A DNA stretch of 64,000 nucleotides from a virus. Below are positions 2,842-16,089 of the stretch, one piece after another. The notes below the pieces were generated by a model. The model made no database searches and was not told the origin of the DNA. It saw only the letters and a list, made by a program, of their open reading frames with translations. The translations under genes were made by a program, and so were the position numbers. Within the stretch, counting starts at the first letter, position 1. Each line of letters starts with the position of its first letter. The stretch lies in IMG/VR virus record IMGVR_UViG_3300032242_001644, positions 22,413-86,412 of that record. One strand, given 5' to 3'.

Positions 2842-3495
2842 TTACTTGGTTTTGTATTGCTGATACAGATTAGCCAACCCTTCTCTAATTGACTCAACAC
2901 TCTCCATACCCATTGGATTATCACCTTGCTTGTAACTATGCTTGTGCATGGTCTGCTGACGGCCTAAACCACCTGACAACTTGTTGACCATGAAGTCAGT
3001 GTCTTGATACTCTGGATCAGGAGTCGTAGATGCATCATATGCACCTTCTTTTTCCATTTCATCTTCTTCAGATTCGTGATCAGTACTTAGTTCGATGTCA
3101 TCATTGCCGTCGCCGTCGATATCAATACCTATCTCTTTTTCACCACCAAGGTCAACACCGTCAATATCGTGTGTTGCATCATGATTTGGTTCATCAGTAA
3201 CAGCTGGCAACATTTCTGGTTTATCACCCATTGAGCTGATGCTGGCAATGTGCGGTTCAGAAGTCAATGCTGGCATTGCTGGACCTTTCTGGCTAATCAT
3301 ATCAGGATTAACTTTGGTCATTAATTTTAATAGACTTTCAATGTTGTCCATTCCTTGAGCATTTAAATTAACACTCATTGATGGGTGTGATGGAGGCATT
3401 TGGCCGCCTTCTGTCCATTGACCCATGTCACCACATTCTGCAATAACTGGTTTGTCTAGGTCATAAATTTTCTTGTATAATTCGTTGAAGTTCAT
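2842..3495 (-). CDS. Acidic hypothetical protein (possible head or core component)
   Basis: 217 aa ORF with an AAGGA RBS; D/E-rich low-complexity centre including DIDGDGNDD. Confidence 0.7.
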   Translation of the reverse strand: MNFNELYKKIYDLDKPVIAECGDMGQWTEGGQMPPSHPSMSVNLNAQGMDNIESLLKLMTKVNPDMISQKGPAMPALTSEPHIASISSMGDKPEMLPAVTDEPNHDATHDIDGVDLGGEKEIGIDIDGDGNDDIELSTDHESEEDEMEKEGAYDASTTPDPEYQDTDFMVNKLSGGLGRQQTMHKHSYKQGDNPMGMESVESIREGLANLYQQYKTK

Positions 3496-12555: not shown

Positions 12556-12562
12556 TATGACT

Positions 12563-13927
12563 ATGCCAAGACTCAGTTTATACAAGCCCGAAAAGGGCAA
12601 TAATTACAAATTTATCGATAAAACCGTTTGGTCAATGTTCCAAGTTGGTGGCACCGATGTGTTTGTTCACAAGTATTTAGGTTCAGGTGCGCCTGTTGCT
12701 GGTACTTCAAGTCCTACGATTCCGCAGTATGATGCATTGAATCCGTCAAATATTCAAGATTTGCTGTTCTTGGAAAATAGAGATCGTACTTACGATACAA
12801 ATATCTACCAGTTGCGTGGAGTGTACAATGTGCAAGATACTGATTTTAATCTAAGTCAATTTGGCTTATTCTTGCAAAACGACACAGTGTTTATCAGTTT
12901 TCACATTAACGATACTGTAGAAAAACTTGGTCGTAAAATTATAGCAGGCGATGTTATCGAACTGCCGCATTTGAAAGACGAATATGCTCTTAACGATCTA
13001 ACATTTACTCTAAAACGTTTCTATGTTGTTCAAGAAGTAAACAGAGCCAGCGAAGGATTTTCAGCAACTTGGTATCCACACCTATATCGTGCCAAGTGTA
13101 CACCAATGGTTGACAGTCAAGAATTTAAACAGATCCTTGATGCTGCTGCGGATACTGCAAATGATCGAGGAGTGTGGGCAGAAAATACCACTTACTATCC
13201 CGGTGATGTTGTTAAAGGTGCAGATGGACTATATTATAATGTCATTGCAGAAGTGACAAATATTTCGCCGCCTAACTCGACCTATTATACATTGGCCAAC
13301 AGTCTACGTGATATTGTCAGTACTTACAAGAAAGAACTAGCAATCACACAGGCCGTATTAAACCAAGCAGAAGCAGATGCTCCAAAGAGTGGATTTGATG
13401 TTACTAAATTCTTTACACTCGCTGTTGATTCTGCAGGACACCCAGCACTGGTCACTGCCGATGAAGATACCATTGATGCCAGTACATTTACCATTAGTGG
13501 CGTAGATGGTGAGGCAACTACTGTAGATGCGTCAACTGTGCTGCAAACACCCACTAAAGAAGGATACGATAAAACGTATCTTATTGGCGACGGAGTTGCG
13601 CCAAACGGTGCTCCGTTTACCAGCGGTACAATATTTCCATCTGGTAATCCAGTTGAAGGACAATTCTGTTTACGCACTGACTTCTTCCCTAATAGACTAT
13701 TCCGTTATTCAGGTAAGCGTTGGATCAAGTATGAAGATAATGTTAGAATGAACATGAGTAATATTGGCGCAGACGATGCTGCTGCTGGCATAACCACAGC
13801 CAACGGTATACGTCTTACACAGAAAAGTACGTTTGTTAATAATACAGCAACTGATAATATCAACGGACATATTATTAAAGAAAGACAAAGTCTTAGCAAG
13901 GCTCTTAGACCAAAGGCGGATGAATAA
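12563..13927 (+). CDS. gp14: Neck / head-closure protein (gp14-like) with insertions
   Basis: GGTDVFVHKYLG, QDLLFLENRDR, LSQFGLF, GDVIELPHL and WYPHLYR; lies between gp13 and gp15. Start placed at MPRLSLY (12563; 12557 is possible) because 12530 is upstream of the promoter. Confidence 0.75.
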   Translation: MPRLSLYKPEKGNNYKFIDKTVWSMFQVGGTDVFVHKYLGSGAPVAGTSSPTIPQYDALNPSNIQDLLFLENRDRTYDTNIYQLRGVYNVQDTDFNLSQFGLFLQNDTVFISFHINDTVEKLGRKIIAGDVIELPHLKDEYALNDLTFTLKRFYVVQEVNRASEGFSATWYPHLYRAKCTPMVDSQEFKQILDAAADTANDRGVWAENTTYYPGDVVKGADGLYYNVIAEVTNISPPNSTYYTLANSLRDIVSTYKKELAITQAVLNQAEADAPKSGFDVTKFFTLAVDSAGHPALVTADEDTIDASTFTISGVDGEATTVDASTVLQTPTKEGYDKTYLIGDGVAPNGAPFTSGTIFPSGNPVEGQFCLRTDFFPNRLFRYSGKRWIKYEDNVRMNMSNIGADDAAAGITTANGIRLTQKSTFVNNTATDNINGHIIKERQSLSKALRPKADE

Positions 13928-14454
13928 TGTATATCTATAAATTTACACATATAGAAAACGGCAAGTGCTACATTGGACAAACTATTCAAGATCCAAATCA
14001 ACGTCGTCTAGAGCATATTGCAGATAGTCGATATACTGCTAAGACATACCATTTTCATAATGCTCTACGAAAATATGGCATAGATGCATTTACATTCGAT
14101 GTAATTGATTCTGCAACATCATTAGATGATTTAAATAAATTAGAAGAAAAGTATGTATTATTATTTGATTCGATTAACAATGGATATAATATTCGAAATC
14201 CGGGCGACAATAAAACACATAATCCCGCTAGTATCGAACGTATGAGAGAATCTCAGCGTAATGCTCATGCTAGAAGAAAAACATTAGGTACAGATACGTG
14301 GACACGTAAAGACGGCGGCCCTATGAAGGGTAAGACGCAATCAACAAATACAAAAGAAAAGATGCGAATTGCGCACTTAGAAGCAACACATTGTAGAGGA
14401 AAAACATGGAAATTAATAGATGGAAAACGTGTTTGGCTGGAGGCTTCGGTTTAA
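13927..14454 (+). mobile_element. Free-standing GIY-YIG homing endonuclease (Seg-like) with NUMOD3-like C-terminal motifs
   Basis: MYIYKFT...GKCYIGQT, R.EH, LEEKY and GYN catalytic-domain motifs; HNPASIERMRES and GKTQSTNTKEKMR DNA-binding-type repeats. Confidence 0.9.
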
Positions 14455-14469
14455 CACCGTTGAAATATT

Positions 14470-16089
14470 ATTCAGTTCTTTTATGACGGTCAAATTAGAC
14501 GATATGTAACACAATTTATGCGCATCTTCATTGGGTTTAAGACTCAAGCAGGCGATGGCACACTGAGACAAATTCCAGTAATGTACGGTGACATGACCAA
14601 ACAAGTTGCCAGCATTATTAAAGAAAACAGCGAAAACAAAATGCCCAGTGTGCCTCGTATTGCCTGTTACATCACTGGTATTGAAATTGCACGTGACAGA
14701 CTAAGTGATTCAAGTTTTGTCAGCAAGTTAAACATTAGAGAACGTGCTTATACCACTGCTGCGGGCAACATTGAGTACGAAAATTATCAAGGTGGTGGCT
14801 ATACTGTTGAGCGTTTAATGCCAACTCCGTACAAGTTGACAATGAAAGCAGACATCTGGACCAGCAACACTGACCAAAAGTTACAGGTCATGGAACAGAT
14901 ACTAATGTTGTTTAATCCTAGTTTAGAAATACAAACTACGGACAACTATATTGACTGGACCAGTCTAAGTGTGGTCGATCTAACTGGGACAAATTTTACC
15001 AGTAGATCAATTCCAGTTGGGTCTGCCGACGATATTGATATTTGTTCTTTAGACTTTGAAATGCCTATTTGGATCAGTCCTCCTACCAAGGTCAAGAAAC
15101 TTGGTGTTGTTAAAAACATTATTATGAATATTTTTGGTGAGCAAGGTGATGTTAGTGACCTGTCTAATATATTGTTTAATGATCCAAATGCACAGGCCAC
15201 ATCAACTCCGGGTAATTTTGGAGTAATATTACTCAAGGCCAATAATGGTCAGCCTCATGACTATAATGTTGAAGTGTTAGATGCCAATGAAGCAGTAAGT
15301 GAAGTAGGACTTGAAGCGCCCACTAAACAAAGTTATCGTATTGATTGGCATAAGGTTCTTGAACTGTACGGCGGTTATCAGCCAGGTATCAGCCAGATAT
15401 TTTTTAGACAACCTAGCGGCAATGAACTAGGCGGAACTTTCACAGTTAATGAAATAGATCCGTCGTTTATCGTTGTTACTATTGACCCTGATACAATACC
15501 CACTAATTCGTTAGGTGCAATTACCGCAATTATTGACCCTTATAAATTTAATCCCATTGCAACATTTGGCAGTAAAGCTGATATACCGCAAGGCACACGC
15601 TACTTAATTCTTGATGATATTAACATATTAGAAGACAGGTATTGGACCACAGAAGTTCGAAGAGTAAATGCACTTACTAGCCAATTTGATCTTGCAGTTC
15701 CATTCTCATCACTGACTGCCTATCAGGTGTTTGTTGAAAAGACCGAAGTGATTTCATCGGTTGTTGAACACAACGGCAATGTTAGAGTTGTTCTTGATAC
15801 TGCGGTTCAGAATGCCAAAGTTACAATTAAAACCATGACAGGTTATGACGGCCCAGATGCTTGGAAAAATACCGATATGACTGACACGGTGGTTGCTGCT
15901 AATTCTGTAATTGAATGGAATGGTGCCAAATGGGATGTGGTGTTTGTTCCAGGCCCAGTGGTTAATCCAATCTATACTACAAATGCAAAAACTGGTATAC
16001 AGTACAAATGGGATGGAGAGCAATGGGTCAAGAGTTTCGAAGGCGAATATGCCAGCGGATACTGGCGATTCGTTCTTGACCCAGTATAA
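14470..16089 (+). CDS. gp15: Tail terminator / sheath stabilizer (gp15-like) with C-terminal extension; start codon uncertain (ATT 14470 or ATG 14518)
   Basis: QFFYDGQIRRYVTQF, IPVMYG, VPRIA, MPTPYKL and QVMEQILMLFNP are gp15-type motifs. The frame is open only back to TGA at 14461. Confidence 0.8.
   Translation: MQFFYDGQIRRYVTQFMRIFIGFKTQAGDGTLRQIPVMYGDMTKQVASIIKENSENKMPSVPRIACYITGIEIARDRLSDSSFVSKLNIRERAYTTAAGNIEYENYQGGGYTVERLMPTPYKLTMKADIWTSNTDQKLQVMEQILMLFNPSLEIQTTDNYIDWTSLSVVDLTGTNFTSRSIPVGSADDIDICSLDFEMPIWISPPTKVKKLGVVKNIIMNIFGEQGDVSDLSNILFNDPNAQATSTPGNFGVILLKANNGQPHDYNVEVLDANEAVSEVGLEAPTKQSYRIDWHKVLELYGGYQPGISQIFFRQPSGNELGGTFTVNEIDPSFIVVTIDPDTIPTNSLGAITAIIDPYKFNPIATFGSKADIPQGTRYLILDDINILEDRYWTTEVRRVNALTSQFDLAVPFSSLTAYQVFVEKTEVISSVVEHNGNVRVVLDTAVQNAKVTIKTMTGYDGPDAWKNTDMTDTVVAANSVIEWNGAKWDVVFVPGPVVNPIYTTNAKTGIQYKWDGEQWVKSFEGEYASGYWRFVLDPV

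Follow-up and report, generated by a model that had tools for sequence, protein, structure and literature searches.

A 64,000-nucleotide (nt) stretch of viral DNA, part of an 86-kb viral contig in IMG/VR and referred to hereafter as the window, carries a GIY-YIG homing endonuclease gene between a gp14-like neck-region gene and the tail gene gp15, and the reading frame of gp15 is left without an ATG for its N-terminus. It belongs to a group of jumbo myophages, the nearest isolates to which are the PA5oct-like phages, Atu_ph07 and Phosso, with a gp15 identity below 40%. The genome that hosts the endonuclease cassette is that of a freshwater jumbo myophage; a megablast search of GenBank phages with the region gave no match. 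The features of the locus are listed below (E, expect value; SD, Shine-Dalgarno sequence; ORF, open reading frame).

12557..13927, + strand: gp14-like virion structural (neck-region) gene; ORF matching PHROG 11591, virion structural protein (E 3e-81)
13925..13929, + strand: TAATG stop-start overlap, in which TAA 13925-13927 shares a base with ATG 13927-13929
13927..14454, + strand: free-standing GIY-YIG homing endonuclease gene, 175 amino acids, apparently intact (Pfam, PHROG)
13930..14472, + strand: 543-nt insert, made up of the endonuclease body and a 3' initiation module (from empty-site comparison)
14439..14443, + strand: GGAGG, the putative SD of the module, within the final endonuclease codons (G/G.GG columns without variation across 52 distinct junctions)
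14444..14462, + strand: short predicted hairpin; core CGGU 14447-14450 / ACCG 14456-14459, closing pair C14444-G14462, loop UUAAC
14452-14454, + strand: endonuclease stop UAA, inside the hairpin loop
14463..14472, + strand: A/U-rich spacer with tandem ATT 14467-14469 and ATT 14470-14472 at its end
14470..16089, + strand: gp15 tail sheath stabiliser / tail terminator gene with a proposed ATT start (PF16724, PHROG 227/11196, T4 gp15 structures)
14518..14520, + strand: earliest canonical ATG in the gp15 frame; it encodes a conserved internal Met, aligned with an internal M/L in all relatives

The gp14-like gene lies directly 5' of gp15 in all relatives. Where no endonuclease is present, it is gp15 that opens at the TAATG, and this overlap is kept in most of ~76 such loci; in the window the same TAATG opens the endonuclease gene. 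The comparison thus confirms the view taken in the initial annotation that the endonuclease took over the start of gp15. Past the endonuclease, the gp15 frame is open only beyond TGA 14461 and reads AAT, ATT 14467, ATT 14470, CAG 14473, then FFYDGQIRRYVTQF, then ATG 14518. Its first codons, AAT ATT ATT CAG TTC TTT TAT GAC, specify N-I-I-Q-F-F-Y-D, and the earlier statement that this frame holds no ATG for the gp15 N-terminus is correct.

The position of the natural N-terminus follows from the homologues of gp15. The match to PF16724 (E 1.4e-26) places protein residues 6-234 on profile positions 2-216; the profile begins one residue ahead of F 14479 and covers the N-terminal FYxxxxRRY segment. 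Residues 3-150 of T4 gp15 (PDB 4HUH/3J2M) are matched, residue 3 of 4HUH aligning with Q 14473, and the protein also matches PHROG 227/11196. In Cassandra, Phosso and Atu_ph07, gp15 starts 2-4 codons 5' of an invariant F-Y-D, mostly at a TAATG overlap. Among 79 related viral contigs, ~76 are endonuclease-free, and all of these start 2-4 codons before FYD, with ATG or, in one case, TTG. A start at Met 14518, which has no SD upstream, would lose eight family-invariant residues (Y5 D6 G7 Q8 R10 R11 Q15 F16) and predicted helix 1; the AlphaFold2 model of the gp15 N-terminal domain is of moderate quality (predicted local distance difference test score 59.5) and was used for the N-terminal helix only. 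The possibility that homologues normally start at the equivalent of Met 14518 is contradicted by the alignment, in which this Met is internal in all relatives. The comparison thus indicates that Met 14518 is not the natural gp15 start. With the natural N-terminus 2-4 codons before FYD, translation must begin at ~14464-14473, where the only near-cognate codons are ATT.

The extent of the insert was derived from alleles that lack it. L004, which has no endonuclease, has a gp15 96-98% identical to that of the window (DNA ~90%). The empty sites of L004 and L005 read ...GAATAATG AGT CAG TTC, i.e. TAATG-AGT-CAG, and that of L006 reads TAATG AAT TTT. A contig from sequencing run X2 jumps from 13929 to 14472 with AG between, which is the L004 form, and a contig from run X4 (151 nt, depth 2) joins 13929 straight to 14473, giving TAATG-CAG. 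By this comparison the insert is taken to be 543 nt long (13930-14472) and to lie between the gp15 start codon and the remainder of the gene; both its length and its position at the very start of gp15 had been predicted, and they agree with the joints in runs X2 and X4 and with the empty sites of L004-L006. The predicted form of the empty site, TAATG-CAG, was recovered in the short run X4 contig only, L004 and L005 having one codon (AGT) more.

The window sequence is not an assembly slip. The Logan assembly of run X1 equals the window with 0 differences at a depth of 16.6; X1 is probably the source sample, so that this agreement is between independent assemblers only. Contig L194, a scar allele from another sample, has an identical spacer (TTGAAATATTATT, followed by CAG), and in L084, L138 and L198 the spacer is different by one base, with ATT ATT retained. 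The concern that ATT might be a sequencing error for ATG is removed by the identity of the sequence in the run X1 contig and in L194. Over window positions 13922-14507, a second relative can be seen in run X1, at greater abundance (contig depth 38 vs 17); its endonuclease is reduced to 36 nt, its module is that of the window, and it reads ATC GAG where gp15 starts. The sequencing runs listed as containing the stretch included no RNA run.

The 3' end of the cassette was surveyed across all loci. In most copies it reads (A)AGGAGGCTTCGGTTTAAC(A/G)CCG, with 13 nt between this sequence and gp15 codon 2, and the order of elements in the module is GGAGG, a hairpin whose loop contains the endonuclease stop, a spacer rich in A/U, and ATT, ATA or ATC. 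The exact 21-nt module was found in 82 viral contigs, always directly 5' of gp15, and the N-terminal motif of gp15 was intact in 82/82; the cassette-family arrangement is kept in ~100 viral contigs. There were 123 distinct junctions, 61 with the module and 62 without it. The last codon before gp15 codon 2 in the 61 module junctions is ATT in 13, ATA in 10, ATC in 18, ATG in 1 (L120) and TCG in 19, and in five of the 19 TCG junction types the codon preceding TCG is an in-frame ATC. An AUU, AUA or AUC codon (AUH) is thus last in 41/61 module junctions and second-last in five more, conserved at the position of the natural N-terminus. The 62 module-free junctions have ATG, GTG or TTG, with the exception of three types that carry a run of seven T. 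That the third base is T, A or C in 41 module types and G in one suggests selection against ATG, perhaps from target-site immunity or dosage.

The nucleotides of the module are also maintained within the endonuclease gene. The C-terminus EASV and its stop (GAG GCT TCG GTT TAA) are kept even where the endonuclease has a different C-terminal domain (L096, L111), which shows that selection acts on the nucleotides and not on the peptide. The initial annotation had pointed to a GGAGG and a hairpin, supplied by the mobile element, as a signal for an ATT start, and the near-invariance of the module, its constant place directly 5' of gp15 and the conservation of AUH as last codon provide strong comparative evidence for such a signal.

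The insert has the properties of a mobile element. The endonuclease matches Pfam GIY-YIG PF01541 (E 1.3e-6, 29 bits, above the cut-off of 22.6) and the homing endonucleases of PHROG 314/5123 (E 1.6e-26 and 3.4e-19). In an alignment with 22 homologues every family-invariant residue is present, the IYKF, YIGQT, R, E and N columns being conserved; a PDB sequence search with the endonuclease gave no match at E up to 1. The gene, with a start and a stop of its own and an ORF that takes up 528 of the 543 inserted nt, does not lie inside a self-splicing intron or intein. An Rfam scan of 13500-15000, with E up to 1, detected no intron and no other family, and the earlier remark that there is no room for a group I intron core is upheld. 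A protein search with the endonuclease retrieved 62 loci, nearly all between the same two genes, and the gp14-like and gp15 genes that flank these homologues are only 40-60% identical to those of the window. Presence of the endonuclease at this site varies among 90%-identical genomes. Between the window and L084/L085, the cassette (~13880-14510) shows 76-87% DNA identity and its flanks 45-65%; a cassette so much more alike than its flanks indicates horizontal movement. Since the cassette resembles those of L084/L085 to this degree and the backbone is ~90% identical to that of the endonuclease-free L004, the ATT ATT came in with the cassette. A tree of gp15 places the window together with three endonuclease-free alleles (support 100), and the cassette state is scattered over the tree. 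Two large clades (23 and 15 rows) consist of cassette or scar alleles only, so that the arrangement is stably inherited.

The linear distance from GGAGG to the tandem ATT codons is 26 nt (14470) or 23 nt (14467). With the 19-nt hairpin looped out it would fall to 7 or 4 nt. The core CGGU/RCCG is pairable in 52/52 distinct sequences, with U-A and U-G pairs in the ratio 25:25; the L099 type shows compensatory changes (C-G to U-A, and U-A to C-G), and the closing pair C14444-G14462 is possible in 51/52. The triplet after the core is TTG, ATG, CTG, TCG or GAG, and since it keeps only its G it probably belongs to the stem rather than serving as a start codon. In a variant cassette, L086, a hairpin of 8 bp follows the GGAGG, and a true ATG comes 8 nt after the hairpin. 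The hairpin drawn in the initial annotation holds for its core, CGGT (14447-14450) and ACCG (14456-14459) around TTAAC; its TTC/GAA extension would need a 2-nt bulge, and the comparison favours C14444-G14462 instead. No intrinsic terminator was found at the hairpin on the + strand. SD-like motifs at -16 to -7 precede 28/40 long ORFs of the window, against a background of 4.7%, and the phage thus uses SDs. A scan of the window for tRNA genes revealed no phage initiator-like tRNA.

Alleles fall into three groups by the spacing between the gp14 stop and gp15, which is 529-587 nt with a full endonuclease, 104-272 nt with remnants, and 34-77 nt where the endonuclease is gone. The module is present in 29 alleles in which the endonuclease is deleted or reduced (gaps of 34-272 nt). 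These three groups indicate that the module and its non-ATG start outlive the endonuclease. The alignments thus display the anatomy of the locus, the mobility of the cassette, the conservation of module and AUH, and their persistence after endonuclease loss.

The scars also bear on how ribosomes might reach gp15. The UAA in the hairpin loop lies 8 nt past the GGAGG and 15-18 nt ahead of the ATT codons. In 20/24 remnant alleles a mini-ORF runs from the gp14-coupled ATG in frame to the loop UAA, and 16/20 distinct deletions are in frame to it (probability ~2e-5 vs an expected 1/3). The L099 type has a TAATC, in which the endonuclease stop and the start overlap. The in-frame mini-ORFs point to termination-reinitiation by a ribosome held by the SD; de novo initiation at the module is also possible.

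From these comparisons we infer that AUU is the codon used, that the hairpin has a bridging role, and that coupling contributes. A GIY-YIG cassette would have homed into the stop-start overlap of the gp14-like gene and gp15, with the result that the endonuclease now sits on the former TAATG coupling start of gp15. The last 34 nt of the cassette would act as a portable translation-initiation module, consisting of an SD, a hairpin, a spacer and a near-cognate AUU. The hairpin would loop out 19 nt and place the SD 7 (or 4) nt from the start codon, and gp15 would be initiated with formyl-methionine at AUU 14470, possibly at 14467. A ribosome that has terminated at the loop UAA and is still paired with the SD would probably reinitiate at the AUU; alternatively, 30S subunits may bind the module de novo. 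We assign a probability of roughly 0.65 to the reading that gp15 starts at AUU 14470 or 14467 through a hairpin-bridged SD, probably aided by termination-reinitiation.

T4 gp15 is a hexamer that is present once per tail. The low output of an AUU start would be tolerable because few gp15 copies are needed per virion. In Escherichia coli, AUU, AUA and AUC starts reach ~1-2% of AUG (bioRxiv 10.1101/063800), and in one SD context AUU was 6-8 times below AUG (PMC3592434). Initiation at the infC-type UAA-GGU-AUU junction takes place both by reinitiation and de novo (PMC3592434).

Several observations weigh against initiation at AUU through a bridged SD. The predicted hairpin has little stability (-4 kcal/mol), folds of the single sequences 14425-14490 and 14439-14475 were no better than those of shuffled sequences, and alignment shuffle controls for covariation were not significant; covariation has little power here, because the module is nearly invariant and many of the sequences were gathered by exact pattern. 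The start efficiencies are E. coli values and only a guide, as E. coli may not represent the host of the phage. ATG has been regained in only 1/61 junction types (L120), though one base change suffices, a rarity that the AUU reading does not account for. Finally, 14/61 junction types (L169, L093, L111, L171, L172, L192, L219, L152, L168, L188, L178, L146, L174 and L203) have no in-frame near-cognate codon, with gp15 intact, so that near-cognate initiation is not the whole story for the cassette family.

These 14 types end in ...TA(A/C)ATCG before codon 2; read in frame with gp15, the stop and codon 2 are separated by A(C/G)T A(A/C)A TCG alone, with no AUG, GUG, UUG, CUG or AUH. In every one of these types the ATC is displaced by 1 nt from that frame and has a G after it. 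Such junctions raise the alternative that entry into the gp15 frame is codon-independent: the SD-hairpin would set the ribosome's position with no standard or near-cognate triplet, or an initiator bound to AUC or AUU would slip by +1 (a four-base AUCG start in some alleles). The ATT of the window would then be a tolerated variant, and ATG avoidance would reflect selection, for example if the start-codon G belonged to the endonuclease target and immunity cost the AUG. The constant 13 nt between hairpin and codon 2 fits this account, as do synonymous changes between L111 and L169, from which it follows that codon 2 onwards is read in the gp15 frame. It leaves unexpected, however, the conservation of an in-frame AUH or AUG within the last two codons of 47/61 types, it has no bacterial precedent, and the ATCG itself could be conserved without any decoding role, since UAAAUCG is complementary to the module's CGGUUUA. 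We therefore regard codon-independent entry as unlikely, though the 14 types leave room for a more unusual mechanism in the whole family. Synthesis of gp15 from ATG 14518, without its first 16-18 residues and with the upstream open frame as a relic, is less probable still. This ATG is the sole canonical start in the frame and its Met is conserved in close relatives, but, as described above, that Met is internal throughout the family and has no SD, in a window where most long ORFs have one. The 16 codons that would go untranslated encode the eight invariant residues and predicted helix 1, and the codons upstream of the Met are intact in all 82 contigs with the exact module, across deep divergence, which would not be expected of untranslated sequence.

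Two further explanations dispense with a new start codon, and both seem very improbable. The gp15 gene could be broken, as a defective variant or an assembly error, or could be made as a read-through fusion with the endonuclease, with which it shares a frame (13927, 14473). Two stops, TAA 14452 and TGA 14461, separate the ORFs, however, and in types with a 14-nt spacer the two are out of frame; a broken gene is contradicted by the recovery of the same sequence in an independent assembly and independent contigs, and by the intact gp15 that accompanies the arrangement in ~100 contigs. The initial annotation had also proposed that the 543-nt insert is removed from the RNA, or that ribosomes are handed from ATG 13927 to CAG 14473 by pairing of the junctions. 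ATG joined to CAG would encode a natural MQFFYDG, the empty-site form of run X4, and TGAATAATGT (13921-13930) is indeed complementary to ATATTATTCA (14465-14474) over 10 bp with one G-U (-10.1 kcal/mol, attained by 4% of shuffles). The complementarity is peculiar to few alleles: it exceeds shuffles in only 3/22 endonuclease-bearing junction types and is absent in the other 19. There are no matched in-frame take-off and landing codons around TAA 14452 and CAG 14473, and where only 34-77 nt lie between the genes the same right junction serves gp15, with nothing to excise or skip. Together with the lack of an Rfam match and of room for a ribozyme in an insert filled by its ORF, this makes excision or hand-over the least credible of the explanations.

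Other candidates were rejected. A start at TTG 14460, or at the ATG found after the hairpin in other types, with a subsequent +1 frameshift does not fit, as the triplet is TCG or GAG in eight types with only its G conserved, in many types the mini-ORF meets a stop at its second or third codon, and there is no common shift site. A +1 shift further downstream, on the U-run of the ATCG types, is contradicted by gp15-frame residues and synonymous changes already from codon 2. Endonuclease-gp15 read-through, a gene-60-like hop, and a late-promoter or leaderless transcript from the spacer were also rejected, on sequence.

The proposed initiation at AUU through a bridged SD has partial parallels in known systems. 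Free-standing endonucleases of T4-like phages (segG before gene 32; segA, segE, mobB, mobC) carry signals for the downstream gene embedded in their coding region, which favours their retention (PMC2988022). Like the seg/mob cassettes, the cassette described here is promoter-less, lies between essential genes, is read from host signals and has downstream signals embedded in it (PMC2988022). In the T4 cassettes, however, it is promoters that are embedded, and each downstream gene retains its AUG, whereas here the signal would be a translation-initiation module, the AUG is lost, and the module outlives the endonuclease. The split SDs of T4 genes 38 and 25 lie 22 and 27 nt from their starts in linear distance, and 5 and 11 nt via a hairpin (PMC3014915). 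Similarly, the over-distant SD of the window (23-26 nt) would be brought to 4-7 nt by an intervening hairpin (PMC3014915); the T4 genes differ in having AUG starts and no mobile element, and the hairpin predicted in the window is shorter and holds the upstream stop in its loop.

E. coli infC and pcnB likewise have an SD-preceded AUU a few nt past an upstream stop, with low output (PMC3592434; bioRxiv 10.1101/063800). The AUU of infC serves IF3 autoregulation, whereas the codon considered here is on a virion gene, is borne by a mobile element and varies freely between AUU, AUA and AUC. Aeh1 mobE in nrdA, and T4 mobA with the gene 60 bypass, also place an endonuclease within an essential coding region or at its border, where unusual expression is needed (PMC2988022). 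Those genes are split into two polypeptides or depend on a ribosomal hop over 50 nt, whereas gp15 is parted from nothing but its start codon, and there are no hop signals. In the literature searched we found no description of a cassette that takes a start codon, supplies an obligate non-AUG module and leaves a lasting scar after decay of the endonuclease.

If AUU, AUA or AUC initiation is correct, an essential virion gene of many uncultured freshwater jumbo phages would be among the very few natural AUH-started genes, the confirmed ones in E. coli being infC and pcnB only. The family would then also offer ~60 natural sequence variants for the study of split SDs, reinitiation and start-codon choice, and would represent a clear case of a selfish element reshaping the translation of a host gene. 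For annotation, gene callers will cut gp15 to Met 14518, or miss its start, in ~100 contigs.

Three minor observations concern the cassette and its site. Endonuclease codons 3-6 (ATC TAT AAA TTT) spell, at window 13936-13943, TATAAATT, which is 7/8 of the T4 late-promoter box; the TATAAATT box is retained in most cassette copies and in several remnants, and a transcript beginning just past it would include the gp15 module and exclude the endonuclease start. In L094, L095 and L098 (~3040-3070) and L118 (~3040-3065), four contigs from different samples, the endonuclease has another 3' end, GGAGGGTAAG(C/A)A GTG GAT, seven T, ATGAC. The SD is good and the GTG well placed, in +1 relative to the gp15 frame; canonical alleles have eight T, and gp15 of these four would require a -1 slip on U UUU UUU or polymerase slippage. 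Lastly, L055-L057, L067, L071, L030 and L068 carry other inserted sequences or ORFs at the gp14/gp15 junction and keep a normal gp15 ATG. One of these inserts ends in a Cys-rich ...CSDCECETC... motif and others are of 164-191 nt, indicating that the junction is an insertion hot spot.

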